Origin: Girardia tigrina | Taxonomy: Eukaryota | DNA length: 57,448 nucleotides | Direction of reading: 5' to 3' | Assembly (NCBI GenBank): GCA_001938485.1 | Contig: MQRK01194127.1 | Span: forward strand, 1-57,448 | Shown here: one piece after another, positions 1,238-45,940 of the stretch | Layout: the number at the start of each line of letters is the position of its first letter | How positions within the stretch are numbered: position 1 is the first letter of the stretch | The notes under the pieces: model-generated | Told to the model about the DNA's origin: nothing | Databases searched by the model: none | Seen by the model: only the letters and a program-made list of their open reading frames with translations | Translations under genes and position numbers: made by a program

Positions 1238-1447
1238 TCAACCCGACCAGTCTTTGGCTTCTTTGAAGGGGCCCCAACCGTGAAAACATCGCCGGAAATT
1301 ATTAGATTCTTTCTTTTTCTGGGTGATCTTCAACTGGCGCGTCTGATTGGGCTGTATTCGCGCCATGTGCTCTTGGTACAGCTTCGCTGCTTTCAAGGAC
1401 AATTTCTTCTCGACGTCTGATGTGCGGTTTCCGAACCAGAGATAGAT
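1238..1447 (-). CDS. FLII: Flightless-I exon 11 (terminal)
   Basis: [21 protein letters not shown]...[22 protein letters not shown]. Confidence 0.92.
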   Translation of the reverse strand: MYLWFGNRTSDVEKKLSLKAAKLYQEHMARIQPNQTRQLKITQKKKESNNFRRCFHGWGPFKEAKDWSG

Positions 1448-4369: not shown

Positions 4370-4412
<43 letters not shown>

Positions 4413-5602
4413 GGATCAAACAATTTCACATTTATGCTTTGTCAAGGTAACATTTCACAGTAATTTCACAAAAAAATTTTTGCTTTTTTTATTCAGTTCT
4501 GAGTTACAGTGTTAAAAATGGAAGTCAACAAAGAAAAAATTCGGTACATTTTACAGTTTTTATTCGATAAAGGCGAAAATGCAAGCCAGGCGGCTGTTAT
4601 TGTGAATAGTGTTTATGGTGCCAATACTGTAACAACTAATTACACGCAATTTCGGTTTCGTCGATTCCGTGGAGGCATTTTTAATGTTAAAGATGCACCT
4701 CACACAGGCAGGCCTATCGTTGAAAATGTCGATATAATATCGGCAATGATCGAAGTTGACCGGCATGTTAGTAGTCGTAGCATCGCACAGGAGCTGAAGA
4801 TCGACCACAAAACGGTTTTAAACCATTTGGGTAAAGCAGGATTCATAAATAAACTTGATGTTTGGGTTCTACGCCAATTAACACAAAAAAACATGATGGA
4901 TCGAATTTCCATCTGCGAAGCCTTGGCCAAACGAAATGAAATCGACCCATTTCTTAAACGAATGGTTACTGGGGATGAGAAATGGGTCACATACGAAAAT
5001 ATTGTACGAAAACGATCGTGGTCAAAACACGGTGAAGCACCTCAAACGGTCACCAAACCAGGACTAACGACCAGGAAGGTTCTACTGTGTATTTGGTGGG
5101 ACTGGATATGAATCATTTATTATGAGTTGCTTCCGTATGACCAAACACTAAATTCAGATCTGTACTGTCAACTGGACCGTTTGAAGATAGCAATTGATGA
5201 GAAACGACCAGGATTGGCCAACAGAAGAGGTGTTGTGTTCCATCACGACAACGCCAGACCAAATACGTCTGTAGTGACTCGCTAGAATCTCAGGGAGCTT
5301 GGTTGGGCAGTTTTAATGCATCCACCATATAGTCCGGACCCATATTACCACCTTTTTCTCGCATTTCAAAATTTCCTGAGTGATAAGAAATTGGGGTCAA
5401 TAGAAGATTGTGAAAATCGATTACTACAGTTCATCGCCAATAAGGACCAAGACTTCTACGAAAGAGGCATTATGAAGCTACCTTCAAAATGGCAACTAAT
5501 TATACAACAAAACGGTGCATATTTGACTTCAAGAGGACAATCCGAAACATGTTAAATAAAGTTTTGAATTTCACACTAAAATAATGGACTTCTTTTTCCC
5601 CA

Positions 5603-5658
<56 letters not shown>

Positions 5659-23600: not shown

Positions 23601-26600
23601 TGGGCGCCAATAATGATGAGGAAATATGGCAACCTCAGCATCAGTCCGAGTTTGAACCATTTGATCAATCTGTCCATTAAACGATGCAAGATTATTTTGT
23701 CTTTCATTTAATCAATCAGAAAATACAAGAATCAAAATTGTGCATAACAGATGCAAATATTGTCAAATTAATCGATTTTGCTGATAAAAATTTGTTTGTT
23801 CGTCTATAATTTTAAACCAGAGTAATTATTTTTTTCGTAATTATTTATATTATTTTGTGTATTAGTCATTTCTAATTTATTATCATCAGACTATCATCAA
23901 TCAAATATATCCAAAATAATCTATGAAAAGTTCATTTTTACGTTAAGCAATTACATTCTTACTGTCTGACAGCGAAGAATATCAAATTTATGATTTCTAT
24001 TAAAGGCATAACTGGATAAATTTATTTATTGATAACACTAAAAATAATATTTATATATAATGCAATAACTTTGTTATATCCAAGTATATGATATTAAAAC
24101 ACTAGACTTCGATTTCAATCAGAAAAAAATAATTAAGAGCACTAAAACCACTCACACAAATCCGAATGTACGTTTTGAACCAATGTTAATCTTTGCCACT
24201 TCAGCTTCATATACAAGCATCAGTCATAATACTACATTCTATGATTTTGAGGTCATCTTATTGATCCTGTGGGTTTCATTATGTAGTACTGTAAATGGAC
24301 ATGTGGTATTTCGTTTAATTCCTGATATAACTTAAATAGAAAGTACATTATTTCCTCCTTGTTTATTTCTGACTGGCATGCTCCAATAATCCAGTGATCG
24401 TACACCATCAGTTTCGTTTTAGATGGACTGATCGGAATATTTTTAAGATTCTGGATGAGACTTTAGATGCATCTAGAGAAATAAAAGCTTGTGTAGAGAT
24501 TGTAATCACTTTTTCCCTGTGGAAGAATTAACTGATGATGAGGACGAAGATCATACAGAAATTCATGACATTGCTGGCGACGTAGATCTGTTGGACCTTG
24601 TTTTTTCGTGGAGAAAACGTCAACTGAAATTCGATTAAATTCTACAAATACCTCGACAGTATATCCAGGAAAAGTGTGAGTTGCTTCTTGGAGAAATCTA
24701 TCACTTGCCTCTCAAGATATTCGATCATTTTGGGAAGAAATTATTCGTTTGTTTAAAGAAAACCGTGAGTTAAAAGCTAGACAAAAGATTGAACACTCAT
24801 AAATTGATACATGGAGAACTGAAACAATTTTTTGTGATACTAATGTTGTCATGCTATCACATTCTCCCAGTAAGCAGATGTAGTGGGAGAGAAGTGAGGA
24901 TGCCTGTTACCATTCGCTTCTTAAAAATAAAAATGGCTACATGCAGGAGATAATAATCAATTGGATGCTACTGCTCACAAAAATACTTTCATTCCTTGAC
25001 CTGACAAAAAAACATTCTTCGTTAGGAAATCTTCGAAAACATTTTTCTGACAAAAGCATTGTACCGAATTTTGGGACAATGTGGATTAAAAATATTTCTT
25101 AAATGGAAGTCCGTACGTTTTTGGTTCACAATTTTAACTTTGTGCGATTTTCTAGGCACAACATCGATGTCTCACAAGGCGGAAAAGTAATCAGCAAAGA
25201 ACTATATTGACCACAAGTATATTTTGTGACATGGTATCAGTTATTCCTTTTCATCCCCTTTAATTTAATTTAATTTAATCGCACGATGATTTAAAGATTG
25301 TATTCACCTTTTCTGCGTTTAGCAGCCATCAAATTCGCTGTGCAGTATGTTACTACAAAGGCCAAATTTAAGTATATTTAGTGTATTGTAACTCTCAATC
25401 ATCTTGCTTTAGGACATACCCAACTTGCACAAAATATCTTAATGGTGCATGTTTTTTGGCTTATTATTGTACATGAAAAAATTAGCACTCTAATAGTGCG
25501 GTACATATTTTTATCTCTGTATTAGATTGGTTATCGAATTAATCACATCCTTTACTTAGAGAATAATTATATTTTTAAGTTTTAACTCGAGAGGCAAACG
25601 TTTGAGATGGTTCGTGTGTAGAAGATTAAATAAATTATTAAATTAGTATTATTAAAATTATTTTAAGAAACACTAAAGGCTATTACATTTTCAAAAGCCT
25701 AAAAAAACAATCAGAATATTCAAAATATCAATCAACCACTTAGGTAGGACAGACATCACTATAAAACAACATTACAATTCATATAACTTAAAATTAAGAT
25801 AAAAAATCAAAGTATTTCTTTGAAACAGGGAAATCAGTTTCGAATCCGAATATACATTTTTCTGAAATAATGTCATGTATGAAACATGGTTAATCTAACA
25901 GTTACTCAGTAGATTGTTATTTATGTGACAATTTAGTACTATATTATAAGAAATTATATTCATGATAAGGCATAATTAATTAGATATAAGATAAATACAA
26001 AACACATTTCGATATTGATACGTCTTGCCATGAGGTAAGGCTATGAAAAGAATACCAATATTGTTCTCAAGCGGAAAATAAACTAATTTTTGTCGACATC
26101 ACTTCAAGTTATAAACAAAGTGAACTTCCAAATTGTGCTAAATCAAGATACATTGGAGTTTTAAAATATCATTTTTTTTGTTATTTTTAAGAACTCTAAT
26201 TTGGTTATCACCACTTTTATTATTATCACAATTCGAATTATCTCTAGGACAATTCACAACAAACTTTCATCAGTTGACATAGAGCCAAAGTAATAAGATT
26301 TTAGATTGATTCGTTTTAAAAGCTCGAAAAAGGATTTCCATTTTATACAATTAAATTATTTTTATCGTTACATGATTATTTTATACATTTTTAGAAATTT
26401 AATATTTTAATATATCTCAATATAAAATGTACTTAAGAGAAATTAATTTAATGATTTAAATTTTCAATTATTCGAATTAATAATTTCATCTAAAATTTTA
26501 CTAAAGAATTTATTTTTTTGACAAATATTGATTTAATTGATTTGAAAAATTTTGTTTGAATCTTTTCACATTAATAAAACTATTGGGTTGATTAGAAAAT

Positions 26601-29600
26601 TCTTGCGCTTTTTATGAATAAACAAAAGTTGGAAAATTCAAATTTGAGCTTTAAGAAGGTTTCGCATTATGTAACCTATTGCAATGTTAGTATTGCATAA
26701 TCCGCATAATCTTCGTGATTTTGATCAAGAACGTCGAAAAATGGCCGCCGCTTCTTTTCACTTATTTCCTCTATCGACTGACTGGTTTGTCAGCATCGTC
26801 ACAGGTGATGAGAATGGGGTTCAATACAACAACATTAAACCCCAAAGTTCCTGATTGAATCTATTCAAAAATCTTGTGCATCTAAAGCTACCTATCCAAA
26901 GCCTGATCTACATCCGCAGTCTTATCTTATTTTGTCCATATGATGCGACACCAATGGCTTACTCTCTATGAACGTCTTCCAAAAACCAAAAGCATCACCT
27001 CTGAGCTCTAATGTGCGCAATTGGACAAATTATCCACCAAGATAAAGAAACTGCGGCCTAACAATGGGTCAATTAGATTCCTGCACGACAACGTTCGACC
27101 ACAAGTCACTCTGATAGCGCACAAAAGCTGCTTGACCTGGACTGCGAGATCTTTATCCATCCACCCTATATCACAAGCTTGTCACTATCAGACTTTCATC
27201 TGCACCGACCGTTAACCGATTCTCTGGTCACACAATCGTTCAGCAATAATACTGAGTTGGAGATTCGGATGAAATCCTTCTTAAAATCAAGGCTTGCTGA
27301 ATTTAACGCATATGGTATTCATGTTCTCCCTGAAAGATTGGAAAAAGTGATTGACAACGATGATGCCTATTTAGATTATTTCTGGTGATCTCACATCCAG
27401 ATCCGAGCTCTTGTTAATAAATACTGTTTTGTTTAGCTATTTCGTTTATCATATTCCTCAGTTATGATATCTAATTTTTAAATGCATGTTTTTCTCAAAT
27501 GCAAAGATGAGAGATTAGCTTTACATCTATTGATCTTAAAAATATTATCAAACATAAAATACATATAATAAGAACAATTATATTATGCAAAATAAATAAT
27601 TTTTATCTCTTAAGATACTATAGACTCAAAAGATAATAATTAAGTAATTACAATTAATCCAACAAAAAATTGTGAATCTTAAAACTTCATCACTAAAAAA
27701 CGTGACATACCTTTAGAGAAACTTCTTTTGATACTGCTTTTGGTGGGGCTCCACGAGCCAACTGCATTTGTGTCTCAAGGGAAAAATCAATGTTGTAAAA
27801 TGCATATTTTGATTTGGTATCATTTTCGCCGAGTTTAGGTGGCATTTTTAGGTTGGGATTGTTATCAATGTTGAAGGTTATTAGGGATTCAATGAGGACA
27901 TTTATAGCGTCTGGCAGGGTTACAAGCTTGTTCATTCGCAAATTCAAGTGTTTGAGTTGCCCACACCGACACAAGCCTAAAATATGCATATCATATCACT
28001 GATCAAAGAAGTTCTACATTAATAAAACTATTTTTACTGTTGTTTAAGAGTACAGACAATAATTTTGTAATTTATATATTTTTTCAACTTTTGCAATAAA
28101 TATTAAACCAATATCAGAACAGTAGAAATATGTAACAACGATATTATGGTTGAGTCTTGGAGACCCGTATAACATTCACAAAATTTCAATATTTTGAAGG
28201 AATTATCAGGGCAACTGTTAGCTCCAGTTATTGAAAAGTATAGCAACGTTGCACAAATTTCTTGAGAAATACGCTCATCTCAAAATGGCACGGGTCAAAT
28301 AGACCCAACTGTGTGATTGTCGGATTAATAATAGTAATGCATAAGATGAAAATTTAATTAAATTGTCGAATAAATTTCATTAATAAGTAACTGATCTCAT
28401 GAGTTTCAAACCCGTTACCTGCAAAAACTTACTATAACATATGAGAAATTACAAACAACATTTTCTTGATTTACTTGAACATTTCATAAAAACACTAGCT
28501 ATGTTATGTTTATATTTTTAAAATCTTTCTAAATTTACATTTCTATGACTTCCGGTGACATTTTTATATAATCTAACGTCACTCTTGACTCGATGTCCTT
28601 TTCTTATAAAAGATCGAAAGTGTTACCATGTCTATTTTGTCTGCCTTCTTTTCTAAGTCCATACTTCCCATCTACTACCTTCAATTTAACAAACCTACCA
28701 TTATGCAAGTCACATGAAATTTTAAATACAAATTCAAACCCCTTAAATGATCACTTTCTATTTTCCAAAAAATATGAACTGGTTAATATTATAATGTATG
28801 TCAAACAAAACTCATCCATTAAAAAAATATATTTTTAAAGTAATATACTTCGACGGATAAACCTTTATCCATAAATCACTTATTAATCTTTGGTTTGCTT
28901 GTATATATTTCTAGTCTGGTAAACATTAGACTGAAATTATTCGAATAAATATATGATAAAGTGCATTTTAAAAATTGTTAATATAGAACATGTTTTGATC
29001 AGCATTGATCATCATCAGCTATTAATTAGTGTTTGATAGTGTTTAATTAAACTGATTAAATGGTAACAAAAATAAAATTAATTGATTTTATTGGACAAAA
29101 AAAGAATTATTTTATTTATATATATACCGTATTACTTCGATTTACCGCGGCGGCGTTTATTTTAAATGCTGAATCGAAGGTGCGGTGTTAAATCTAAGGC
29201 AGCGTTTATTCGAGGGCGGTGTTTATTTCAGAAATTAAAAAAATTAAAATTAAAAAACTTTATTCAAAAAAATAATAATTTGTTTAAAAATACACAATAT
29301 TTTCGCTTATTTTTTTATAGAAAAGAATGCCGAGCAAACGATCTTATGACCTAGCTTTCAAACAGAGAGCAAAACACAATCTTACTTTTAGATATATTAT
29401 ATTATAAAGTATGATTGATTGTATAATTGTACTTTTTAATGCGGCGTTAAATCGAAGTAATACGGTATATATATATATATATATAATCATTATTATTATT
29501 ATTAATTATGTAAAAAAAATTTTAAAGACACAATTTGAGACTGTAGTGAAAAATTATATAAATACTTTTGGAAGATAATTTTAAAGATCAGGATAGTGTT

Positions 29601-31612
29601 TTTCTAAATAATTTTAAGGAGATTGGTGTTAAATTATATTGTACTAAAACACTGAATTTCTCCTTCATATTACATATGCTAGAGTTTTGAAAAACTTTTA
29701 AAATATGATATTAAAGCAGTAAATAATGAATGAAATTTAAAAATTATGTCACCATCTCATAAAACTCAAAATATGTTCACCAATAAATCTATTAGACATT
29801 TAACTTATATTTTTTATATATATCTAAATGCAATTGACGTGATGCAACATACATTTAATAGATTGTCCGTAATCTCAATTTAAGAACATCGTCTGAAAAA
29901 ATGATAATAGTAAAACTACTGATCGTAGGAGAATGTGTCAATGTGATATCAAAATTGATAATTTGAAAATCATATACAGCATTTGGATAGTTATTAGGTG
30001 AAATTGTCGTGTGAGGTGTTTTAATTAGATCATGTTATCCTAAAATCAATGTTTAAACGCCAGTCTCAACCAATTTTTGTGAGAATGTTTTATTAGCATA
30101 ATCTCATTCAACCGATGACATAATTTGCATTAATTAGTCAGTGAACTAACAAAGACAGATGATTATTTTATTATAAACATATTTGAAAATGAATGAGTTT
30201 CGTTTTTTATAAAATATTTTTGGTAAAATGATGAAATAAATAGCATACACAAGTAGATAGACCCTAAAAATATTATAAAATAAACAATTGAATATCTAAA
30301 AAGCCTTTATTTTCTGAAATACTAAATAAAAATGCTTTACGAGAATAAATATTTCGTAATATAAGATCGACAAGATGGAAATTGAGGTTTTGACTCGATT
30401 TTACCAGACAAAAAGGTGTGACACACGAGTTATTATTTCAAATGCATAAATAATTTACATTAGTATAATAATTTCATTCAATATCCTTTGATACGAAAAG
30501 CCGTTGAAAAAATTACTTCCAATTGTCAATAAAGATTAATTGAAGTTAAATATTACATAAAATTATAAAATAAGTAAAAACAATTTATAAATTAGAAAAA
30601 GACACTCACCTTCTGGGATATTTTCCAACATATTTTCCGAAGCGCTGAAAACTTCCAAATTACTAAGTTTACCAATACCAGGTGGAATTCCATTGAATGT
30701 CAACTGATTGTTGTCAATATAAAGCTTTTTTAATTTTGAAAGACGAGTAATAAATGAAGGTAAACTGCACAAACGATTTCGACTTAGATTTAAAATTTCT
30801 AAGTTCGGCCAGCAATCGACAAGGCCACTTAATTCATCAATGTCATTTCCACTTAAGTTGAGTTTCGTTAAGCTGGCGATTTCGTATACAGATTGGGGGA
30901 CTTTTTGAAGGTTGTTATCAGAAATATCAAGATCTTGAAGGCATTGCAATTTGTCAAGATCAGAAGGTATCGTGTCTAAACGCCTAGAGGTGTTACTGAG
31001 CAATAAGGTTGTCAATTTTTTAAGTCCGCTAATTGATCGAAGCTGAGATACTGTTAAAGGATTATTAGATAAATTTAATGACTGTAAATTGGGCATCCTA
31101 CGTAAATTTGTAGGAAACCCAGTAATTTGATTGTTGCTCAAATCAAGTATCATCAAACTAACACAATTAGCAAACAAATCTTTGGGAACGGTTTGTATTT
31201 GATTGTCACTGAGATTGAGTACCAATAAAGATTTGGCATCAAACAATCCTTTGGGAACTTCTGTCAACTGATTGAAACTTAAATCAACAACTTGTAAATG
31301 AGGATTATCGAATAATTTATCCGGTAAACAATCACCAGTGATCTTATTTTTTCGAGCATTAAAAACTCGTAAAGATTTTAATTCTGTACACCAATCACCG
31401 GAAAGTTGTTGGATGTTGTTTTTACTAACAGATAAGCGTTGAAGTTGAGTAAGCTTTTCAACGCCTTTAGGAATCTGATCAATCCCAGTTGAGACGAGTT
31501 TCAACCATTGAATGCGAGTCATGTTACTGAAAGCCGCACTACAATCATGGTCGTTGATCTCAACTGAGGACAAGTCTATTCCAAGAAGAAATTGAGAAAC
31601 AGATTTAGACAT
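1238..31612 (-). CDS. FLII: Flightless-I (N-terminal LRRs + gelsolin repeats), complete spliced CDS, 11 exons: 31612-30610, 27976-27711, 23061-22840, 21032-20632, 14316-13929, 9809-9585, 9518-9394, 9345-8739, 1950-1786, 1735-1508, 1447-1238
   Basis: All junctions are GT..AG with consistent phases. Total 3840 nt = 1279 aa + TGA. Recognisable FliI motifs: [102 protein letters not shown]. Confidence 0.96.
1508..1735 (-). CDS. FLII: Flightless-I exon 10
   Basis: EGEEPDIFW...[12 protein letters not shown]...[19 protein letters not shown]. Confidence 0.93.
1786..1950 (-). CDS. FLII: Flightless-I exon 9
   Basis: TTTCAG acceptor, [12 protein letters not shown]...ICWIGK; the donor could alternatively lie 3 nt further on. 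Confidence 0.88.
2400..3160 (+). mobile_element. 5'-truncated RTE-like LINE (RT C-terminus)
   Basis: [46 protein letters not shown]; internal stop near 2600; A/GAA-rich tail. Confidence 0.88.
4374..4410. repeat. (TA)n microsatellite
   Basis: Direct; further tracts at about 5607-5658, 38993-39033, 46803-46828. Confidence 0.9.
4411..5608 (+). mobile_element. Mariner (D,D34D) transposon, defective transposase about 4518-5555
   Basis: [28 protein letters not shown] motifs; stop at 5109-5111 and frameshifts; right TIR ...CCCCAACCT; (TA)n on both flanks. Confidence 0.93.
5837..7065 (+). mobile_element. Penelope-like retroelement fragment (RT C-terminus + GIY-YIG endonuclease + pseudo-LTR)
   Basis: [13 protein letters not shown]; [30 protein letters not shown]; [13 protein letters not shown]; downstream TATATAAAAG (6911-6920) and a hammerhead motif. 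Confidence 0.9.
6948..6982 (+). ncRNA. Minimal type I hammerhead ribozyme motif (Penelope-type)
   Basis: CAA-CTGAAGA-T-GCCA ATA TGGC-GAAA-CTAG-TA-TTG: core boxes, stem I CAA/TTG, stem II GCCA/TGGC, palindromic ACTAGT. Confidence 0.75.
8739..9345 (-). CDS. FLII: Flightless-I exon 8
   Basis: GHFFTQDSY...YFWQGREAS...RMFQQQE...ALCTRTIE. Confidence 0.93.
9394..9518 (-). CDS. FLII: Flightless-I exon 7
   Basis: [19 protein letters not shown]...KMKIDM, between 66-nt and 48-nt introns; not in the ORF track. Confidence 0.87.
9585..9809 (-). CDS. FLII: Flightless-I exon 6
   Basis: [15 protein letters not shown]...LKLAYEL...EPQIFK. Confidence 0.9.
11927..12159. mobile_element. piggyBac-type MITE
   Basis: TTAA|CCCTTTACTGAC ... 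GCCAGGAAAGGG|TTAA. Confidence 0.75.
13350..13790 (+). mobile_element. Decayed Penelope-like GIY-YIG fragment
   Basis: [28 protein letters not shown]...RVKEH parallels the 5862..6734 ORF. Confidence 0.7.
13929..14316 (-). CDS. FLII: Flightless-I exon 5
   Basis: LYLWFG...INQCERKG...[15 protein letters not shown]; CTAG acceptor, GTAACT donor. Confidence 0.92.
15238..15283. repeat. Degenerate (CCTAAC)n telomere-like tract
   Basis: ACCCTAACCTTAACCCCTAACTTTAACCCTTAACCCTAACCCTAAC. Confidence 0.7.
15350..18370 (-). mobile_element. Decayed Mutator-like (MULE) element
   Basis: Minus-strand fragments IMCWVHM (~16740), [14 protein letters not shown]-like [17 protein letters not shown] (~16060-16110); inverted similarity between ~15700-15760 and ~18075-18130; boundaries approximate. 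Confidence 0.72.
19050..20280 (+). mobile_element. 5'-truncated non-LTR retrotransposon with C-terminal C2H2 zinc fingers
   Basis: [18 protein letters not shown] (RT C-terminus), then [39 protein letters not shown]; stops and frameshifts. Confidence 0.8.
20632..21032 (-). CDS. FLII: Flightless-I exon 4 (gelsolin repeat 1)
   Basis: [13 protein letters not shown]...[10 protein letters not shown]...IYYWIG. Confidence 0.94.
21400..22480 (-). mobile_element. hAT (Buster/Charlie-like) relic
   Basis: [19 protein letters not shown]...[20 protein letters not shown]; GCGACCCC subterminal motifs; boundaries approximate. Confidence 0.8.
22106..22286. mobile_element. pogo/Tigger-type MITE nested in the hAT relic
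   Basis: TA|CAGTACTCATTGAGTTATTTGAA ... TTCAAATAAATCAGCGGCTACTG|TA. Confidence 0.7.
22840..23061 (-). CDS. FLII: Flightless-I exon 3 (linker)
   Basis: [13 protein letters not shown]...[12 protein letters not shown], phase 0/0. Confidence 0.9.
24430..25240 (+). mobile_element. Heavily decayed piggyBac (PGBD-like) transposase
   Basis: Acidic TDDEDED start, [21 protein letters not shown] remnants across frames. Confidence 0.6.
26581..27420 (+). mobile_element. Decayed mariner
   Basis: TATTGGGTTG terminus; [18 protein letters not shown]...[17 protein letters not shown]. Confidence 0.85.
27711..27976 (-). CDS. FLII: Flightless-I exon 2 (last LRRs, linker)
   Basis: TTTTAG acceptor, [11 protein letters not shown]...FYNIDFSL, donor GTATGT. 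Confidence 0.93.
29127..29465. mobile_element. Tc2/pogo-type MITE with TA target duplication
   Basis: TA|CCGTATTACTTCGATTTA ... TAAATCGAAGTAATACGG|TA. Confidence 0.9.
30610..31612 (-). CDS. FLII: Flightless-I exon 1 (start codon, LRR domain)
   Basis: ORF 30563..31612 of tandem LRRs; donor AG|GTGAGT at 30609; in-frame TAA directly before the ATG. Confidence 0.95.
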
Positions 31613-31662
31613 TTAATCACACAGTTATATTAAAGGATATAAAAAGTTGTTTTTTGTAAAAA

Positions 31663-31752: not shown

Positions 31753-34700
31753 CTGAAATGATTTTGAAATTAAACAAAATATTTTTATAAAAGAGCGAAA
31801 TATTTGATAACACAACATTGGCATTATAAACATAGAGCTTTACCGATTATACATAGTGAAGACTTAATGATATAGTTACAAATATTTAATATTTATTTTT
31901 AAATACATTTTAATAAAATTATTAGTGTTATAGGAAAAATAAATTTTAAAAATCCACAATAATACCTTGTTTCTCGAAATATAAGACACTGCCTTTGATT
32001 AATTTTGATAGAAAAATTACCAGTAGTAATTACTTATACTAGCATATTTTCGAAATTAGAAATTAAAAATAGACAAAAATAAGAATAAAAATCACAAATA
32101 AATTTATTCTTCAACATAAATCTCATCTTCCATAAAATATTCATTTTCATAACCATTTAAAGCTTCTTTGTGGTCATCAATCGAACACAAGTTACATGCT
32201 CTTAATACTTGATAATTAATTAGAGCATAAGGTTTTCTTAACAGTATCAGGTGATATTTTATATTTTACTGTGTAACTTTTTTCTTTTTTGGTTCATGAA
32301 GGGATGAAAAATGATTAATTTAAAAACAAATTTTTTATAACAATTTTTAAAATTTACATATTTTTTTGAAATTATCAAATAAAATATTTTAAAAAAAATG
32401 GTAGGTCTTATATTAATGGATGTCTTATATTAATATTCCCAAAAATATCTTTAAATTTTGGACTAAGTCTTATACAGGGAGATGTCTCATATTTGGAGAA
32501 ACACGGTAAGATACTCACAAAGAAGTATCTTATTTAATAAGATAAACGTTTTACTTTATCCCATCTTTATACCAACCTATACATCATGTAATAAAAAAAT
32601 ATAACAACCAAGTCATTGGAAAAGCATTTATAAATCAGTTCATCCTAGAGAATAATTCATCATATTATTGAGCGATTATCAGCAATAATTTAATAAATTT
32701 TGCATATTCTTGACATTTCTGAAATCTTTATTATATGAAAGAATAGTGTCTGGGAATTCTGTAAGTCATTCACAATCAAAATGTACGATTGATATAATAT
32801 TCGATTAATGAATCTTCATGGACAACTGAAAACAAAAATATATCGCTAATGTAATATTAAAAAATCAGATGAATTGAGAGTGAAAATGTGAGACAATAGG
32901 ATAAAATGCTCTCATGAGACCTGTCGATGCAAGAGCCAGTTATCAATTGGCAGTAAAGGAAGTTAACGGGTAGATTTTAGCGTAATAGAGAAGCAACAGC
33001 GGAAAGACCATGTTCTTGTTACTGCCGACTGATTTTCGCACCCGATTTACATACAATACTTGAATTTACATTAACAAAAAAGTAAATACTTGATTTGATC
33101 CGATTGATTTTTAAACTGATATTATTATTTGGTTGTTACAAAGAAAAATGAAAATACAATAAATATTTAACTGTAAATAATAATGGTTATGTAACAGTGA
33201 TCAATGCGATCAATTTTAACAACATAAAACATGCTTTTAATACAAATGTAATAAATACATATGATGAAAAAACCACATTCAACATAGCGCGAAATGCTCG
33301 TTTATCGAGATTGATAAGGAAGAGATCACACTTTTGCAGACGCATTCATCAGATATGGATATAATGAAATAGCAATTTGGACATGGAACTGTGATAAAAT
33401 AGAGTCTTTTGAATGTATTTCATTATTCAACTTAAAAGAATCGATTAATATACATAAATGACTTCCACATATTATTTTGTCTCTAAAAACGAGCTTATTC
33501 CAATCAACAAGTAAGCAGAATATAAGCACAATCTTCTTATCTAAAAACCAATTTGAATTATTGGCAAATATAAGGAATTGTAAGGATGCAAATATGAATT
33601 TGAGACTTAATCAAAATGAATAATAAATAGTGCAAAACAAATCCCACTATTTATTAATACATCAACTTAGCAAAACAAATCCTACGGGAAACTGAAATAT
33701 CTCGAATGTAAAAAAACTAAATAAAGTCGATTGTTCCTAGATTTATCCTTGTAACTGAGGACCTCGTTTTCTGAGTGACAAATTAAAGTGAACATGAAGG
33801 ACTATAAAAGTACTCAAACGTATTTGACGATGATCTTAATTTGAAGATAATCGTTTGATTCATTTAAAGTGAAACCAATGGTACACTATTCAATGAATCC
33901 CTCACCTTTTTGTCTGAGACTTTAACAGTTAATAATAGTAAGACTATTTGCAGGTTAAGCATTATTTATATAACACTGTTTCTCGAAACCGCCAAGTTCT
34001 ACCACATGATTGCTTAAATATTATCTCTTAATAATATGTCAGTTGTTTCGTACAAGTTACTTTGAACAGTGTACTTTGAACATACAAAAATAAGTCAAAA
34101 TATAATGCCAAAAGATTTATCAAAAATGTTTTCGAACGAAGGCATATTTATTCTTACAAATATTTATTTAATTAATAATAAGATAGTTTTTTATTGTAGA
34201 TGAGTGTTTTAATAAATTAGAATAATATTTTAAAATTGGACTTCGATAGTAATAAAACGACTTTATTCTCATGTCTGAACTTGGTGACTAATTCGTTATC
34301 CTTAGATATATTTAATATTTTAACATTCAAGAATTAAAGGACACTTGAAGTTTATAATTACATTAATTGTTAAATTCCAAATATTCGGTTTGTTGAAAAA
34401 TAAATAACACAATAATACTAATGACTTTAGAAGTTACTGAAAAATTACTAAATAAATAGTTTAATAAGCATAAATAATGATATTCTTGTTGTAATAATAA
34501 TGCTTCTTTAATATTAACTCAACGTGTACGGAGTCTATTTAATAACGTAAAGGACGGAGTGGGGAAACTTGAGTCTCCCAAACGAAAACATTACCTCATA
34601 ATAATAAATAAGTTAATAAATGATTGCAACTAATAGGTTTTTATTCAGGATTTATCTAAATTGAAAAGAGAGAAAGAAAAATTTTAATGATATTATTAGG

Positions 34701-37700
34701 TTGGAACGAAAGTTTTGTCCGCTATTTAAAAAAAATGTAAATAAATTTGTAAATTTAATTTTGCTTTATATGGATTTTATGTATTATATATTCTTAGGGG
34801 CATTTTGATAAAATATTTTAGGAACAAGTTAAAATGTCAAAAAAGCGTGAAGAAATCCGCAACTTGATTTTACTCGAATTCAAACCTGGAAGTACAGCAG
34901 TGGAAGTGTCTAAAAGCAGGCCGAGATTCTAAGACTAAAAGAGCATGCTTTCGATTGTATGCAAAATTACGCTCCGCAAATACGCATCTTAAAGACAAAA
35001 GGTGTTCCTGACACTCAATAACCATTGATTAACGAACGTTACATCGTCTCATTGAAGCAAATCAGACCCAAGCAACGTGTGAACTGACTTCTGAACTTTA
35101 AACTTACCCTATTACTATTAATCGAAACCTTTAAGAAACATAAACGTGGTCAAAAATAAACTCAATGATATTGAAAAAAATCGGTGAATTAACAATTGTT
35201 TTTGGCCATTGCAAAAATTCAATTTTATTGCATCGCAACAGATTTGGACATGCGATAAGAAGTGTCTTGTCTACGACAACCAGAAACGCAAAAACCAATG
35301 GCTGAGTCAAGATCAACTTTAAAAATGGAAGCCTTGAAGTGATCCGAATCAAAAAAATGTGATGTTGTGTGTTTTGTGAATGGTCCAACTGAGAACTCCT
35401 TTCACGCGATCAAACCATCACTGAAGTTTCTTGCACCCACTTAGACCTTGTTTAGGCCTATTTGTGTGTTCATGGTATCAACAAGACAACGCTAGACTTC
35501 ATGTTTCTCGCCTGACGTGTTAAAACTTGGTAGAATTGAATTGGGATGTTCTGAAACACATACCATATAGCCCAGACGTTGCTACATCCGATTATTATTT
35601 TTTCATCTGACTTGAACATTTCCTTCACCGACATCGCTTCATTTAAGAAGAACACTTGGAACAAGCCCTTCAAATTTTTTTCGACATCTAAACGCTATAG
35701 TTTTACCACCGCGGAATTTTCTTGTTGCAGTCCCTCTGGGAAAAAATAATCGACAGTAATGGCGATTAAATTAATGAAAACGACCCCTTGTTATTGTAAA
35801 AATTTTATCTTTAATAAAATTTTAATTTACTGACAATACTTTCGTCCCAACCTAATACTTATGAAAAAATAATCTTTGGCGAGTTCATGCCTCCATTTCG
35901 TTCTCCAAGCGTTAAAATTTTGTAAAATACATATGATTGATAGATGTTATACTATTAGCACAAGATTGTATAGAAAATCTATCCAGTCTTCAAAGACCAC
36001 ATGTCACCACAAAATTTTATGAAAACTCATGTCCGAATAGATATAAAAAATACGTCTGAAAATGAAAGAAGTTATTGAAAACAATGAGAAATCCATTAAT
36101 CTTGGTTTAATATGGCTAAAATATCTATGGATATTCTGTCTTAAATCTCAAGAGACGTTTTACAAAATTGGAAAAATAAATACTTAGGTTAATTATTTAA
36201 TATTTAATCCACTATTATATTTATTACTATTCACACGAAATAGTAAAGAAATATGGGTTATGGAAAATCGAAACGTAATACTTGAAGTGACACGAGATAC
36301 TCAGATTGTTGACTCTGAAATTTAAAAAGAATACAGCGATTTATGGAGCTAAATCCTTATAATTTGGGACACACAATCTTTACATATTGACAAATTATCA
36401 ATGAAATATGTAAACATTCAATAAATTTGAATGATGATAAAAACCACTTGTGGTAACAAATGATAAACATCCCTAATTGCTCGATTCTGGGAAAACATAC
36501 TAGAACTCAGTCAAGAAAATGAATGTCATTTCATTTATAAAATAGCATGTTCAATATATAATAAGGAAGGAAGACAAGAAAACGTGTTTTGAGAAATAAT
36601 TCTCATCATCAGGTCCTAGTCCTTTGTGTATCAACATAATATGAGACACTAAATGAATCGAAATGTCAATTCCATTCCCATTAAGGAATCCTCTACGGAT
36701 CCCTTAATTGTCAAACTGAGAATGCACATTGGTCAGTTGTCGATTGTTTCGATCATCAAAGGTCTCTTTGTCATTTAATGGTCGGGACGATAGGAAAACC
36801 AAATCAATATCTCAGTTAGACAACTGATAACTGAAACTAATCCCTTGTGATAAATTTTTATTTTGTGCTATTTATTATTTGAAAAAACTTTAGTAAATGG
36901 GTATCATATAACTAATCTACAAGGAGCGCCAAAATATCTGCAAAGCGAATTTAATGCGCAGATGTAAGAGATAAAATCCAATTTTTAAACAATGATTTTA
37001 CATATTATGAAAACAAATTGATTTACTTTTTTTGATTAAATATAAACAATAATTGATAAAAATCTTTACATCAAAAACATTACCGACCGTTTCCGTGTAA
37101 AATTGACTCGAAAAAATCAAATTCAAAAAATGAAGTCAATAGAAACCGAATCAAATAGAAACAGCACACAGAAATATCAACACTGATCAATAGAGAAACA
37201 AAAGATATCGCACAAGACAACCCGATCAATCAATGTTTATTTGAGAACAATGATCTGTTTCAAATTTCAAAAAATTATCGATTATTTTTCAAAATGAAAG
37301 AGAAAAGTAAACAAATAATAAATTCGATAAAAATGATAAAATTGTGTAAATATTGACACAACGCAACCGATATTCACTATTATTATTTGATTAAATTATA
37401 TCAAACATTAATTTAATTTTAATTACCGTAAAATCATTAATATAAGATACGGCCTTTATGATGATAAGAATAGACTTATTTTGTTTAAGGCTCTTTTTAA
37501 AACTTAATGAAATACGACTTTTAATTTATTTAGCAAATCCTAGAGAGCAAATCCTATTGGTAAATTTGGTTTGTAAAGAGAAAAGATAATCATTATCATA
37601 ATTACACAAAATATCAGAAAATCATACAAAATTATATGTAGTCACATGTTCCTATAATAATAATGGATCTAGAGCAGGAACAAGACTCTTCAACATCGGA

Positions 37701-38988
37701 GATTCTGGTGTTCGCATTTGGAAAAAGGAAAAATATCTACTTAAAAAGATAAACCCAAACAAAAGAGCAAGACTTGGACAGTGTACATATTACACAGAAA
37801 TTAAAGATAAACTTATTGATTGCGTTAAAATTCTTCGAAATAATAAAAGGACGTAAAGAAACTTATTTTAAATGTTATCAATATAAAGAACAATAATTTA
37901 TATAAATTGTATAAAGAAATAATAAGGCCGAAACGGTTGCTTCCTTTTCCATTAAATTTGACTTTTTAAATTCATGAATCGCCATGAAACTCCAAAACGA
38001 TTTGTTAAAGGAAAAAGTTGAAGTTTGAAAACTTTAAAAAACATCAGTTGAGTAGAAATGTTTCTCATAACTAGTAAATCAAAATTAATTTATTTTCATA
38101 TCCATTTTGTATGCGGGCAGAACTCTATTTGGCCAACAGAATTTTTTTCGTTATCTTTTGTAGAAATGAAAATTACTATTACATTTTTAATCAATTTATT
38201 TTGTTATTAGTAACTATTAAAATCTTTTGTAGAAGGGAAAATTTTCATACAAATCAATTTACAACTCAATTTTGCCATTAAATAGTCATTAATAACACAA
38301 TAAATTTATTATAAAGCGTGGAAGGAAGAAAAACAAAACATTTCTATTTAATACAGTTTAAACATTCGTAAAACGATTTTTCGCAATACAAATTTTTTGA
38401 TTTAATAGTTTGATCAAATTTTCGGTATCCAGAAAATTGCTCCCCAAAAATTTCTCCCTATAAAAATTACTCCATAAAAAACTTGGTTTGGGTCACGATT
38501 AGGGATAGAGTAACGGTTTTGGGGCTGTAGGTAAATTTATTTAAATTTAAAAATTTACACCCTATACTTTATACATTGATATTATATTTACAGTTATTGT
38601 TTACTATTAAAATTCACCATCTTGCTAGCAATTACTTTGCAGAGCACTTGTACGGAGATCAATTTTTGGAGAGCAATTTTATGTAAATCCCATTTTCACA
38701 TAATCATTTATTGTCATCGAAAATGAGTAAATGTACAAAGTTTGAAGAAAATTGATTGAGTAAAAGCTTTCAAAAATAGGTTTCTAAGTTCCATGGATAC
38801 ACATATAGAAAGCAAGTCAATATGAAGAATGAAAAAATGTCGATAAAGTTCCATTTTGCTTCGATTAACCAGTAAAATTTAGAATTAACTTCAAAGAAAC
38901 AAAAGATATCAAAATAAATACGACGGGTTCGGGAAAAAATGGATTTAGGGTCATATGATTGTTAGGTCTGTAAATATATAAATGATAA

Positions 38989-39036
<48 letters not shown>

Positions 39037-42000
39037 CGTTGTGAAACGTAATTTCTTGTGAAATATCTAAATCTGTAAAATAAATCACTTAACTTGAAAG
39101 ACATTCAGTGAAGTGTATCACGAATAAATTGAAATTTACGGAAAATGTTTCTAAATTTATTAATCGATATCTGATTTCAATAAGCACTATTATATCTACA
39201 TGTCAACAGTTACCAGTTGTTTATTAGCAAGAAAATCTTGGAGCTTATAAAGTTTCACGATGGTTTTACATCACTAGTTTAGAAATACAATTGGAAAAGG
39301 TGCATAAAATTTTACAATTGATGTAACAAGACAAAATACGCGAAGGTTCTTTTTATGGGTTACTGAACTAATTTCAACAAATGATCTTAAAATCCCCTTA
39401 AGTCTAACCCTTAGTTTAAATCAAATCATTTGTTGAAATTAATTCTACTTCCCCTTTTTATTAGCTTACTTTCTATATCGGTATGTATGTATCCATGGAA
39501 TTTAGAAACCTAATTTTGAAGGCTTTTTACTCAATCAATTTTCTCCAAACTTTGCACACTTCCTCGTTCTCGATGACAATTAATGATTAAGTGAAAACTT
39601 GATCAAAATAATAAAATCAAAAAAATAGTTTTTACAAAAAAAACGATTTACGATTATCCGCAAATGTTCAAACTGTATTAAATGGAAATATTTTGGTGTC
39701 TTCCTTCCACGCTTTATAATAAATTTATTGTGTTATTGATGACTATTTGATGGCAAAATGGAGTTGTAAATTGTTTTGTATGAAATTTTGCCTTCTACAA
39801 AGAAGATTACAAAAAGAATTCTGTTGGCCAAGTAGAGTTCTGTTGGCCAAGTAGAGTTCTGTCCGCATAACGAATGGCTATGAATTTTTTTGTGATTTAC
39901 TAGTTTTAATTAAGATTCGACATTGGGACAGTTTACTAAATAATTATTTTTACTAAAATAGAAAATAATAAATAAAAAATTATATTAATACTTGTTGGGA
40001 GCGTTGTTGAGTTCATAAAATTTTGAATTTACAATCTGATCAAATTAATAATTAAACAATTACATTCCGTAAAACATTGTTATAGATATGTTCAAATAAG
40101 ATTTTCAGAAATTTAATGTAAAAATTAATTTATGTAAGAAATAAATTAAATTTTACGGCAGGTTTATTAAAAGATTTATGCAAAGATTTATTATGAAGTA
40201 AAAAAGTTAATTTTAAATTTGATGAAAATATTTAATTGAAATAAAATCAAAAGAAATATAAAGTTTAATATTTTACTTGCGAAATGAAAATAAACTAAAC
40301 TATTTTACCACGTTTTTCTTAGCTTGGTTTCTTCTCTGTCTGGAACAAATCTTGCGATTGATTTTTCGACCACTTTCAGTCATCCAATTGAGCTGAATTT
40401 TTTATACAGGCTTGCTTCCGATGACAATACATTTACTTTACGGATGTACGGAAAAAATTAATAAATTGAACAAATATTGTGAAAATCAAGTGATAATTAA
40501 GTGTATAAGTATTAAAATTAGGTTTAAAAATTATTTTGAAATAAACTTGCTTTTATTAAAATAAAACTTTGTTACTTTGGTTTTATTATCATTTCTGTTA
40601 TTCGAAATCAATCGAAAGATTTGAATTCCTAAATGATAACTAAAAATAGTAAAATAATATTNNNNNNNNNNNNNNNNNNNNNNNNNNNNNNNNNNNNNNN
40701 NNNNNNNNNNNGATCATTTCTATGCCCCACGTTTTTGGTTAGGTATAAAATTTCTCACATGTCTAGAAAAAAATTATTTTCCTCTTTTTAGTGCATTGGT
40801 AATGCTTGAAAAACGTGGTTGTTTTTATAAGAATTGTTTTTTATTAATAATATTATTTGTAACTTTATTTTACACGATTAAATCGAAGTAAATTAAAAAT
40901 GTAATTATAATTTTTTGGGGAAATTGTAATTGGAATCAAAATACAATTGTAAAACAATTAAATCGACTTAAATGAAAATGCGATTTTAATTTTATTTTGG
41001 AAAACATAATTATTAATGGAAAAATAATTTTATTTTTTTATGTAAAAAAAAGGATAATTTAAAAGTTGTTAAATTAAACGAAATTGCGATTTTAATTCTA
41101 TTTTCAAAATATTATTTTATTAAATCCAAAGTAATTTTTAAAACTATTATGAAAACGAAATGAAAAATGCTATTGTATAGAATTGGGAAATTTAATTGAG
41201 AAACAGATAAATTTAAAGGTACAATAAAATTGAAATTTAATAAAAGACGCAACAAAATCTTTGTGACAAAATTTTAATAAATTCACTTTATAATTTTTTA
41301 TTAAAAAAAGTATAGAATTTTAATTCGTAAAAATAGAATAACCATATTTATATTTATATCAATTCTTATTTATAATGGTCTGTGTAAAAAGAAAGTGCAA
41401 AAGTTCCTCGGAAATATTTGTTTAAAAAACTCAAATTGTGATAGAAATAAAGTTTTGTGTTAATGTCAACGTCTTTTGATCAAGAGCCCAATAATACTAA
41501 AAACAATAATGAAAGAGAAATAAATAATCATGAAAAATAAATACTAAAAAATCGATAATAATAAATGATAATTCTCAGTTGAACAAATAATTAAATAAAC
41601 ATTAATAAAGTAATAAATATAGCCAGAACCTGAGAGTTCTGGAGGATATTGTTGATGAGCGTCAATCTCCGCTTGCAGTTGTTCAATTTCTTGAGATATG
41701 GATCGATATTAATGGGGACTGCGAGATTGTCACTTATATCGCTTAAATCTGAATGATGTGTCGATAATCAAATCTTTCTTTCCCTAACACAATCTCGTAA
41801 AACTCTTCCGTTCTATCTCCGATGAAAAACTTTTTCTTTCAATCAATTTTCTTTATCAATACATTTTAAATGATTAATTATTATTTTCCCGAAAAAAAAT
41901 GTATGTGTAACTTTAAACGTGTGTCGGACATTTGTTTTTCAACATTATCTTCGTTTAATTTTGAACTTATTTAACAAATTATTTTAATTTAATTTAAAAG

Positions 42001-43577
42001 AAAATCTTTTTTTAATATTTATTATGAGTAAAAATTTGATAATAGGTTAAATAATTCCAAAAAATCTATTTTAATATTTTTTAAATAATTTTATTTATTT
42101 TTTCCAGTTAATATTTGATGACTTTTAAATATTTAATCAATTAAATATTAAAATTCAAAATTTTGTGATCTTTCTAAAATCATAATAACAATAAAATAAA
42201 AATAATAAATAAACTAATAAATAAATGATAATTAATTTAAAATATTAAAATCATTAGAAACAAAAAATTAAAATAAAAAAACAAATCATGATCATAAAAA
42301 TTATTTAAATTTTTAATAAAATATCGGTTTTTCTAAATTTTCAAAATCGAATAATGAAAAAATTAATACATCTTAATAATTTAAAAAATTGATTTCCATT
42401 CTAAGAAAAATATTTTAATAAATAACAAGAATATTTAAAAATGATCATATATTAACTGAAAAAATTAATAAAAATTATTTTAAAAAATATTAAAAAATTT
42501 TAATTAGAATTTTTTGAATTAATTAACTTATTATTGATTTTTAAAATAAATAAAAATTAATTAAAATTATAAATAAATAATAATAAATAAAAAAATAAAT
42601 TAAAAAAGTCTATTTCAGTTTTTTTTAATATTTTTAAATAATTTTTATTTAAATTTTAAATATTTTTTTTTAGTTTTCAGTTATTATATGATATTTTTTT
42701 TATTTTAACCTAATTCTAAAAATACTGTTTTTTTTTAATTTTGAAATATTCTTTTTTTTATTTTTTAATTATTTTGTTTTTTTTAATTTTTTTCAGTTAT
42801 TATTTTAAAATCTATTTTTATATTCTTTCAAAATTTTCATTTTAGATAATTTTATTTAAAATATCAATTAATGAAAATAATTTATTAAATATTTTTTCAA
42901 AATTAATAAAATAGAAATTATTTATTTTAATTACTTTGTTTTTCTTTTAATACTTAATAATTTTTTTATATTTAATATAAATTATTTTTATATATTTCTA
43001 AATATTCATTTAAATTTTAAATATTTTTTTATTTTTATTTAAAGATTTTCTAAAAAATCTGATGATTGAATATGTTTCAAAGTTTCATACTTTATCATTA
43101 GCAATGTTAATTATTTTTATTTAATTAATTATGTAATTCTCTGTTGGAATCATTCTATTATTTTTAATAAATTATTATTTATTTCATTATTTTAAATATT
43201 AAAATTCAAAAAATTATGTGAGCTCTACAAAATCCTAATAATAATAAATAAATAATAATTAATTAAAAATAATAAAATATTTCAAACGGAAAATAATAAC
43301 TTAAAATAAAAATAGAAAAAACTTTTCTTGATCGAAGAGAGAACGAACGAAAGAACGTTTTAAAAAAATTTGCGCTACTTTTCGCTAATGATTCTATTTG
43401 ATTTCTCAATTCGATTTGACTCGTTCGAATTTCCTCAACTTTTTTATCGGTTTCGATAATACTTGGTTTCAACAATTTCAAGAGACTCTGTGATAATTTC
43501 GATTTGATTTCCTGTTCGTTGAGTTCTGAATTGGTATTTCGATCTGAATTCAATTCCTCATTCAAATTATCCGACAT
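31663..43577 (-). CDS. SNAPIN: Snapin / BLOC-1 subunit 7, complete spliced CDS, 3 exons: 43577-43379, 41748-41630, 31752-31663 (135 aa)
   Basis: Spliced product ...LLKPSIIETDKKVEEIRTSQIELRNQIESLAK|NL...IDPYLKKLNNCKRRLTLINNILQNSQ|DRVTKLRANISKESKRR... parallels the Snapin family pattern (LRPAVQQLD..VRESQVELREQI..LDPYVKKL..VNNILQNAQERLRRL..AKETARR). GT..AG junctions, phases 1 and 0. Confidence 0.92.
34696..35855 (+). mobile_element. Near full-length decayed mariner with both TIRs
   Basis: TA|TTAGGTTGGAACGAAAGT ... ACTTTCGTCCCAACCTAA|TA; PYSPDVATSDYYFF remnant near 35560. Confidence 0.88.
38069..39905. mobile_element. Foldback-like element with long imperfect inverted arms and nested MITEs
   Basis: AACTAGTAAATCA / TGATTTACTAGTT ends; ~38110-38420 is inverted to ~39600-39870; ~38695-38820 is inverted to ~39460-39600. 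Confidence 0.85.
39357..39453. mobile_element. Small MITE
   Basis: GGGTTACTGAACTAATTTCAACAAATGAT ... ATCATTTGTTGAAATTAATTCTACTTCCC. Confidence 0.75.
41630..41748 (-). CDS. SNAPIN: Snapin exon 2
   Basis: TTCAG acceptor; IDPYLKKLNNCKRRLTLINNILQNSQ; donor CAG|GT. Confidence 0.92.
43379..43577 (-). CDS. SNAPIN: Snapin exon 1
   Basis: 5' part of ORF 43263..43577; donor GTAGCG in phase 1 matches exon 2. Confidence 0.9.
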
Positions 43578-45940
43578 TCATATAATTCAAAAAATCAAAA
43601 AACGATATGAAGCTAAAAAAATAGTTGGTATAGCAATTTTCAGAAAAACGAAAAAAAATTATGAAAATAGATACGCAGAAAAAACAAATTGCAAATTAGA
43701 AATTACCAAATCCAAAAATTTAAAATATATTTAGGAAAGATTTCAAAAAATCGATTTCATTACTTTTAATTTGAAATAGTAAAACAAACAAATTTTTTTA
43801 TAATTTGTTCATTTGTAATGTCAATATTTCAATAATGAATAGGAAAATAAATCTCGTGCGAAATTGAACTTTATATTTTATTTCATATCTGAAATTATGA
43901 CGAGTTAGTAAATTTTTATTTTGCTGAGAAATGTAGAATAAAAGAATGTGAGGAATAAAATAGTGAGTACGCATTTTTTCTAAAACATGAAATTTTATTA
44001 AATTTAAATAAAAATTTTTCAAGTTAAGATGAAATAATTTTTTTGATTCAAGTAGAACAGATTAAATGAAATTTGAGGCCGTAGATGTATATTTCCTGCT
44101 TTTGTAATTTTTATAGGTGTACTTTATTTTTGTATTTTTAAGAACGTCCTTTTTATCTGTTTAATTTTTTGACTGAACCTTTTAATCGTGTCATTTTTAT
44201 GGTGTACTTTTAATTTATGTTGTTTGGGATTAAAATATAAAATTTAAAATTTTTGATACTTAACATCAATTTTAAGTTTTAAATATTTTAAATTGTATAA
44301 GTTGATTTGAGTGTGCTGAAATGGTAATTTTAATTCTCCCACCCAGTTGGAAAATGGGTGCTTTATTGTTTTTAAGGACACTAATTGGATTTTCAATACA
44401 TTTATTGAGTTTCAATACAATTTGAGTTGCCTCGAGGACAATTCTCCACAAAACTTTTGTAGCTTGTCATCGTTCTAATAATAAACTAATAAATAAATGA
44501 TAATTAATTTAAAATATTAATTGATAACTTTTTAATTCATTTTCTAAACGTCTTAATATTCAAACAAGTTTAAATTACAATTTCATTAAGGGGTGGGTTT
44601 GTGATGAACTCATCTGTTGAGTGCAAGTACCCCTTAGCTCGACTGACCCTGTACCATACTGCATACCGTCGGGGATATAACTGATCGTAAACATAAAATA
44701 GTTACCGTGGAATGATAGCATTTGTAAATTATAATGCAGGCCGCATCTAGCCTAACAGGTCCGGGGTTGTTCAATTCGACTTTATTCATTACTCGCACAA
44801 TGCAGAGAAAAGAATTTAAAATATAAAAAAGTATCTATATCCGCGATATATAGTGAACGCAAAAATTCAAATCGTCAAAAAAGTTTATTGATTATTCTAA
44901 CAAAATTTAGTCCGGCATTTTTTGTCATTACTATACATAATTTTTGCAATTAATTCCCATCAAACTCAAAACAATCCGAAATCTCATCGATGCAATTTGA
45001 CTGAAATGTCTGACCAAATGGAAATCTGAGAGAACGTTGTGTTCTCTCTACTGTAGTTTTTGAGTTTGATGGGAAGGCTAAAATTGAGTTGATTGTATTG
45101 AGTGTGAGAAGTTTCATCTCAAAGATTAGCTTTTGGTGTGCTGTTAGTTGTCATCTATATCATATGTCTCCGTTACCTTGTAAAGTACGGAACGATAGAG
45201 AAAACATATCGTTTTCTCAAATGGTAATTGATAGCTGCCAATGATTGGTTTGCGAGAATGAGATTGATTGCATTTAGTGCATCTCTCTTAATTTTAAGGA
45301 AAAGTGAAATAAAGTTATTTTCATCCAATAATTTATTGGATAAATNNNNNNNNNNNNNNNNNNNNNNNNNNNNNNNNNNNNNNNNNNNNNNNNNNNNNNN
45401 NNNNNNNNNNNNNNNNNNNNNNNNNNNNNNNNNNNNNNNNNNNNNNNNNNNNNNNNNNNNNNNNNNNNNNNNNNNNNNNNNNNNNNNNNNNNNNNNNNNN
45501 NNNNNNNNNNNNNNNNNNNNNNNNNNNNNNNNNNNNNNNNNNNNNNNNNNNNNNNNNNNNNNNNNNNNNNNNNNNNNNNNNNNNNNNNNNNNNNNNNNNN
45601 NNNNNNNNNNNNNNNNNNNNNNNNNNNNNNNNNNNNNNNNNNNNNNNNNNNNNNNNNNNNNNNNNNNNNNNNNNNNNNNNNNNNNNNNNNNNNNNNNNNN
45701 NNNNNNNNNNNNNNNNNNNNNNNNNNNNNNNNNNNNNNNNNNNNNNNNNNNNNNNNNNNNNNNNNNNNNNNNNNNNNNNNNNNNNNNNNNNNNNNNNNNN
45801 NNNNNNNNNNNNNNNNNNNNNNNNNNNNNNNNNNNNNNNNNNNNNNNNNNNNNNNNNNNNNNNNNNNNNNNNNNNNNNNNNNNNNNNNNNNNNNNNNNNN
45901 NNNNNNNNNNNNNNNNNNNNNNNNNNNNNNNNNNNNNNNN

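Follow-up and report, generated by a model that had tools for sequence, protein, structure and literature searches.

Girardia tigrina Snapin, depleted of ATG in all frames, lies 50 nucleotides ahead of Flightless-I: a predicted dicistronic mRNA with possible leaky scanning

In a 57,448-nucleotide stretch of the flatworm Girardia tigrina genome (positions 1 to 57,448 of the forward strand of contig MQRK01194127.1, assembly GCA_001938485.1; henceforth the window), the genes for Snapin (BLOC1S7) and Flightless-I (FLII) lie on the same strand as two non-overlapping open reading frames (ORFs), with 50 nucleotides between the stop codon of the first and the start codon of the second. We favour, with moderate confidence, the reading that the two genes share a dicistronic mRNA from which FLII would be translated by leaky scanning, as in the Snapin dicistron of the fly. 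A first-pass annotation, made from the letters of the window, had proposed that ribosomes reach FLII by leaky scanning or by reinitiation after two tiny upstream ORFs (uORFs). The scanning part of this proposal gained support from a depletion of ATG triplets beyond both chance and homologous proteins, from a weak Snapin start context and from a spacer free of AG; the idea that the micro-uORFs are a design found no support, and the joint mRNA is a model.

The Snapin reading frame is joined from three exons at GT-AG introns (Table 1) and encodes 135 amino acids without an internal methionine, as the first-pass annotation had stated; the interval given there, 41630..43581, takes in exons 1 and 2 but stops short of exon 3 and the spacer, 9.9 kb beyond. 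Exon 1 and exon 2 both score above the Pfam cut-off for PF14712 (Snapin/Pallidin), and this domain, together with best matches that are named Snapin (the closest from Macrostomum), places the protein in the Snapin family. A genome search returned 25 other Snapin matches on 23 contigs, among them processed, intron-less copies, none of which extends beyond exon 2; they were therefore rejected as a record of the 3' end. They do confirm the exon 1-2 junction, as 21 of the 22 processed-copy contigs fetched carry the two exons joined; the donor of intron 1 is atypical (GTAGCG, 43378-43373), and the copies nonetheless show splicing at that site. The arthropod-like Snapin loci L039 and L041 both have a phase-0 intron at the position of intron 2, inside which none of the 17 longer ORFs has a Pfam match. 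The exon-3 peptide fills the conserved terminal part of the alignment of Snapin cores, and the genome search found exon 3 as a single copy and no second copy of exon 3 plus spacer.

FLII is also single-copy in the genome search, and encodes about 1,250 amino acids over about 30 kb. Its N-terminal leucine-rich repeats (LRRs) and gelsolin repeats, its full length and its grouping with named FLII proteins assign it to the Flightless-I family, the closest named match being that of Clonorchis. The alignment spans the whole length of trematode and fish FLII, from the start ATG at 31612, which aligns with residue 1 of the trematode protein, to about base 1241, and in a phylogenetic tree the protein is sister to three trematode-like rows (support 99/96). 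A single exon (window 30563-31612) holds the entire LRR region (~334 codons), and multi-kilobase introns with transposon remnants follow it.

Table 1. Features of the Snapin-FLII locus (positions in the window)
Feature	Position	Strand	Remarks
Snapin, 3 exons, 135 amino acids	43577-31663	minus	GT-AG joined reading frame, 43577-43379 + 41748-41630 + 31752-31663; 408 nucleotides including stop
Only AG in the ~180 nucleotides before the Snapin start	43613..43614	minus	after a T run, 35 nucleotides before the ATG; candidate acceptor of a 5'-untranslated-region intron or of an outron
Micro-uORF M-N-V-G-stop	43567..43581	minus	opens 4 nucleotides upstream of the Snapin ATG and overlaps the Snapin start
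Micro-ORF M-R-N-stop (+17)	43550..43561	minus	out of frame (+1 frame); arises from Asn6-Glu7 codons
Snapin exon 1, coding part	43379..43577	minus	start ATG 43577; PF14712, E=5.5e-9
Snapin intron 1	41749..43378	minus	1.6 kb, very AT-rich, atypical donor; junction backed by processed copies
Snapin exon 2	41630..41748	minus	no ATG; PF14712, E=2.6e-7
Snapin intron 2	31753..41629	minus	9.9 kb, GT-AG
Snapin exon 3 with stop codon	31663..31752	minus	resembles Snapin C-termini in alignment
Intercistronic spacer	31613..31662	minus	50 nucleotides; no ATG, no AG
FLII, about 8 exons	1241..31612	minus	LRR and gelsolin repeats, full length; alignment to trematode and fish FLII

ATGs were counted on a spliced model comprising 100 nucleotides upstream of Snapin, its coding sequence and the 50-nucleotide spacer. 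They occur at 43581 (-4 relative to the Snapin start), at 43577 (the Snapin start itself, +1) and at 43561 (+17), and the next is the FLII start at 31612, reached after an ATG-free run of 439 nucleotides. The first-pass annotation had listed exactly these triplets, including the short frames opened at 43581 and 43561 and FLII as the next AUG on the spliced RNA, and the codon shuffle that it had suggested gave 1 ATG observed against a mean of 4.5 (P(<=1)=0.032). Measured against exons of the same genome, 1 ATG was present in 457 nucleotides where 8.4 were expected (P=0.002); the controls were 11 stop-free exon segments (seven from FLII, two from HemK2, and BLOS1 and BLOS2; 70 ATGs in 3,819 nucleotides), after the removal of two stop-containing FLII segments and of one near-duplicate BLOS2. 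The longest of the 108 ATG-free gaps in these controls was 171 nucleotides, and the BLOS1 and BLOS2 exons, of about 230 nucleotides each, contained 10 and 3 ATGs. Among out-of-frame triplets ATG was the most depleted of all 64, while its reverse complement CAT was not depleted. Snapin exons 1 and 2 alone held 1 ATG against 5.8 expected (P=0.02), and depletion in these exons, which lie upstream of any acceptor able to free FLII, supports the reading of one scanned mRNA. The depletion in Snapin is thus more than chance, but moderate.

Recoding the same protein with the codon usage of the genome gave a mean of 1.3 ATGs (P=0.55), which led us to reject synonymous-codon avoidance of ATG: the scarcity therefore resides in the order of amino acids and not in the choice of codons. 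An out-of-frame ATG requires N, D, H or Y before E, D, A, V or G, or a codon ending in A before C or W. Snapin has two such ATG-capable residue pairs, both within its first 26 residues, and its core (amino acids 27-124, 98 residues) has none and no methionine (residue shuffle mean 3.5, P=0.008); for amino acids 27-106 the figures are 0 against 3.0 (P=0.014).

Homologous proteins were compared as the first-pass annotation had also suggested. Among 28 well-formed Snapin orthologues picked from 58 matches, every core contains between 2 and 8 capable pairs, and three alignment columns that are mostly ATG-capable in these orthologues (15, 18 and 20 of 28) read DK, YL and NS in Girardia. In the wider set of 55 matches covering at least 70 core residues, which includes many redundant vertebrate isoforms, no core reaches zero for pairs and methionines together (minimum 2, median 7). 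By contrast, absence of in-frame methionine by itself is common: 6 of the 28 orthologues have no internal methionine and 29 of the 55 aligned cores have none. We therefore rejected it as a marker of dicistrons, so that of the rule drawn by the first-pass annotation from Drosophila (no in-frame AUG in the first cistron) the fly precedent stands but its diagnostic value does not. In one case, L037, an intron-less Snapin that no ORF follows, there are 6 internal ATGs against 6.9 expected. A word-indexed homologue search with a processed Snapin copy returned no close orthologue.

The Snapin start context is weak, with T at -3 and T at +4; of 12 starts of tubulin and Arf genes in the same genome (recovered from 60 loci, two of them near-duplicates), 10 carry A at -3. 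All three ATGs around the Snapin start (-4, +1 and +17) have T at -3, which under general scanning rules favours leakage. The two micro-ORFs could pass ribosomes on to FLII, but they look tolerated rather than designed, because each closes within four codons. The -4 ATG sits inside a T-rich tandem unit and is found in 4 of the 18 processed copies whose 5' end is aligned. The +17 ATG, present in 14 of the 18, is the product of a common Asn codon at one of two possible ATG sites; the copies are non-independent pseudogenes and thus a weak test of conservation. The view of the micro-uORFs as selected elements found no support in these counts. In yeast, downstream AUGs compete with a start up to about 17 nucleotides away (PMC9743702; published sources are cited by PubMed Central number), and the +17 ATG is placed at this limit. 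[quoted passage not shown]

Taken together, we propose that a single promoter upstream of Snapin would give a transcript from which the introns of both genes are spliced and which would often continue past the spacer's poly(A)-like signals. On it, 43S complexes would encounter three weak-context AUGs in close succession; some would initiate Snapin, some would leak past all three, and some may translate a micro-ORF of 3-4 codons and then resume scanning. Ribosomes not engaged on Snapin would scan about 440 AUG-free bases to FLII, and selection for FLII output may have stripped Snapin of methionine and of ATG-forming pairs (YV to YL, NA or NV to NS, DE or DD to DK). Alongside this transcript there may be a minor mRNA for Snapin alone, with its end close to the spacer. 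Of 20 sequencing runs, 13 hold half or more of the sampled words, and rows with small shares were set aside. Four runs (one sample, guessed to be RNA) contain 0.99 of 114 sampled words from exon 3, the spacer and FLII exon 1; this share hints weakly that the spacer is transcribed, and it does not distinguish one mRNA from overlapping untranslated regions.

The spacer also contains two poly(A)-signal-like hexamers, AATATA at 31631 and, overlapping the FLII ATG, ATTAAA at 31617, and a Snapin-only mRNA is therefore possible. Both hexamers belong to the poly(A)-signal variants that are enriched in planarians (PMC5068929), and they would suit two independent, tightly packed genes, with the Snapin mRNA ending in the spacer, a promoter of FLII's own within intron 2 or exon 3 of Snapin, and the ATGs of exons 1 and 2 missing through chance and the low methionine content of Snapins. 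An FLII 5' untranslated region made of exon 3 and spacer would account for the last 140 ATG-free bases, Met-free Snapins are common, and several depletion P values are only 0.02-0.07. We nonetheless regard this arrangement as unlikely: hexamers of the AATATA/ATTAAA type are expected by chance in AT-rich DNA and are many in intron 2, a gap of 50 nucleotides would have to arise in a 1.43-Gb genome with local introns kilobases long, and depletion in all frames is missing from all 55 homologous cores and from the BLOS1 and BLOS2 exons of the same genome.

A second alternative, which the first-pass annotation had not considered although SL trans-splicing is how flatworms usually resolve gene pairs, is a flatworm operon, in which a spliced leader (SL) would be joined at the exon-3 acceptor (31752) or at an acceptor-like site within exon 3 (31691), giving an FLII mRNA that lacks Snapin exons 1 and 2. 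Planarians possess spliced leaders (PMC10899757), and flatworm operons, defined by intergenic gaps of at most 300 bp, are resolved by trans-splicing at acceptors that often serve cis and trans splicing alike (PMC12582326, PMC8629364). Both sites end in TTTCAG, in agreement with the Macrostomum [T/C]TNCAG motif (PMC8629364); the one inside exon 3 (next base 31691) is the best internal AG candidate, 79 nucleotides before the FLII ATG, and the 9.9-kb length of intron 2 also speaks for such an origin. In Schistosoma mansoni, moreover, a candidate polycistron has FLII (Smp_165930) listed as its downstream member, 15 bases behind Smp_165920 and with an SL-trapping count of 36.5 (PMC5832876). The schistosome SL signal is weak, however (0 in the filtered RNA-seq column), and the upstream model is annotated as dbl-related, not as Snapin; the 10,408-row table of the same source (PMC5832876) contains no gene named Snapin. 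Whether Smp_165920 might conceal a Snapin ORF is speculation.

In the window, the AG sites near the FLII start are confined to the interior of exon 3 and to its cis acceptor, and the spacer offers no unpaired 3' acceptor between stop and start. Trans-splicing would not require exons 1 and 2 to be free of ATG and leaves their depletion unexplained. The flatworm leader itself ends in AUG (PMC12582326), which at these two sites would open a uORF of 30 or 25 codons, so that leaky scanning or reinitiation would be needed for FLII all the same. Cleavage at the spacer signals would fall at or just after the FLII start and leave no intact, acceptor-bearing FLII end. Considering this, we judge an SL-resolved operon improbable.

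Several points weigh against a dicistronic mRNA read by leaky scanning. A transcript running from Snapin exons 1 and 2 into FLII is a model, and none was seen; exon 3 or FLII is found in 0 of 22 processed Snapin copies, the spacer carries the two poly(A)-signal variants, and S. mansoni FLII has some SL reads (PMC5832876). The FLII start has T at -3 too, as does the HemK2 start, which weakens the contrast with the Snapin start, and second cistrons in green algae show good start contexts (PMC11892635). The P values are moderate and vary with the null model: next to the codon shuffle (0.032), a residue shuffle of the whole protein gave 2 pairs against 6.2 (P=0.022), amino acids 2-106 gave P=0.070 and exon 1 alone P=0.12. 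The start of the core (residue 27, where the Pfam match begins) was chosen after both capable sites had been seen to lie N-terminal to it, and the comparison orthologues include no triclad and come mostly from less AT-rich genomes.

We put forward a more far-reaching version tentatively, at somewhat short of an even chance: that FLII is expressed only as the second cistron of an mRNA which bypasses trans-splicing, that the demand for an AUG-free path rewrote conserved Snapin residues in all frames, and that arthropods and flatworms recruited Snapin as lead cistron independently of each other, with HemK2 and FLII as the respective partners. If this is true, polycistronic expression in flatworms would also be achieved at the level of the ribosome and not via trans-splicing, a protein sequence would have been moulded by selection against one nucleotide triplet in all frames, and Snapin would be a repeated lead cistron with different partners. 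In practical terms, RNA interference aimed at either Snapin or FLII in the worm would affect the two genes together, and the first ORF would escape gene callers.

Elsewhere in the window, two plus-strand segments (51228-51612 and 55376-55648) probably belong to a real divergent gene ~7.6 kb upstream of Snapin, with a strong start context and no Pfam match. Among 49 of the 92 listed ORFs, a Pfam scan found neither a same-strand operon partner upstream of Snapin nor a gene hidden in intron 2, but only two transposon remnants. The processed copies form a dispersed, intron-less family of Snapin exons 1-2 (L002, L003 and L005-L024; larger stretches L025-L036), with 67-90% identity over the aligned part. 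They share about 80 nucleotides upstream, and up to about 650 nucleotides downstream, among themselves and not with the window, and the cDNA piece in them is joined to an unrelated ORF fragment; the family is possibly an amplified chimeric retrogene or a Snapin-capturing mobile element. One of the larger stretches (L033) has, further on, what we take to be a ubiquitin-like stretch. At a BLOS1 locus (L057:1483-2160), the end of the last exon is separated by no more than a few tens of bases from a convergent gene, labelled EF-hand-like from a reading of its sequence; this is a further very tight gene pair, here on opposite strands.

Among known systems, the Snapin-CG9960 and stoned dicistronic mRNAs of Drosophila were reportedly described by Wall et al. 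in 2005. In Drosophila, Snapin leads a dicistronic mRNA that it shares with the methyltransferase CG9960 (PMC2276209, PMC12444909), and, at second hand, its ORF is said to be deficient in internal AUGs and the second ORF to depend on leaky scanning (PMC11892635). FlyBase cites this dicistron as a case of resumed scanning, although most fly dicistrons do not fit scanning (PMC4528330). The two arrangements are alike in that Snapin comes first, lacks internal methionine and has a poor start context, and in that scanning is the presumed route to the second ORF. They differ in the partner (HemK2, i.e., CG9960, in the fly; FLII in Girardia), in the Girardia depletion of ATG in all three frames and in that the two-ORF mRNA is here predicted from DNA sequence.

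The fly linkage reaches beyond Diptera: on two arthropod-like metagenome contigs (L039:71-1224 and L041:209-1325) HemK2 directly follows Snapin with a stop-start overlap, compared with the 50 nucleotides of the Girardia spacer. These are 2 of 20 metagenome Snapin loci, of which none has FLII beside Snapin and none is shown to be flatworm-derived; in the Girardia genome, no Snapin was found upstream of HemK2. Two proteins (P0152 and P0156, one named from a beetle) are fused Snapin-HemK2 gene models, and a weak, crowded search for fused Snapin models gave one nematode protein and no Snapin-FLII fusion.

Bicistronic loci of green algae (PMC11892635) resemble the pair in their short first ORF of weak context, in the few AUGs in any frame before the second ORF and in the short distance between ORFs; there, however, the second start is typically strong and the case is backed by long reads and reporters, whereas FLII has T at -3 and is known from sequence. 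In the ORF35-37 mRNA of KSHV (Kaposi's sarcoma-associated herpesvirus), which has dual uORFs (PMC3561293), a tiny uORF overlapping the first start can likewise send ribosomes downstream by reinitiation, and the -4 uORF ends past the Snapin start just as KSHV uORF2 ends past the first start. The viral uORF AUG is strong and positionally conserved, whereas the -4 AUG has a weak context and comes and goes between copies (T at -3, 4 of 18 pseudogene copies) and, by this weak test, lacks the conserved start and good context of KSHV uORF2.

With SL trans-spliced flatworm operons (PMC12582326, PMC8629364, PMC5832876) the locus shares same-strand genes less than 300 bp apart, and S. mansoni FLII, too, is downstream in a close pair, but in Girardia there is no acceptor AG between the ORFs, and such operons have no need of AUG depletion in their first gene. 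The literature covered reports neither a Snapin-FLII pair nor a leaky-scanning dicistron for flatworms, the flatworm operon lists of PMC12582326 being outside this coverage and possibly bearing on novelty. Compared with known dicistrons, the predicted Snapin-FLII mRNA would be new in its partner, in its phylum and in the unusually complete depletion of ATG in all frames.

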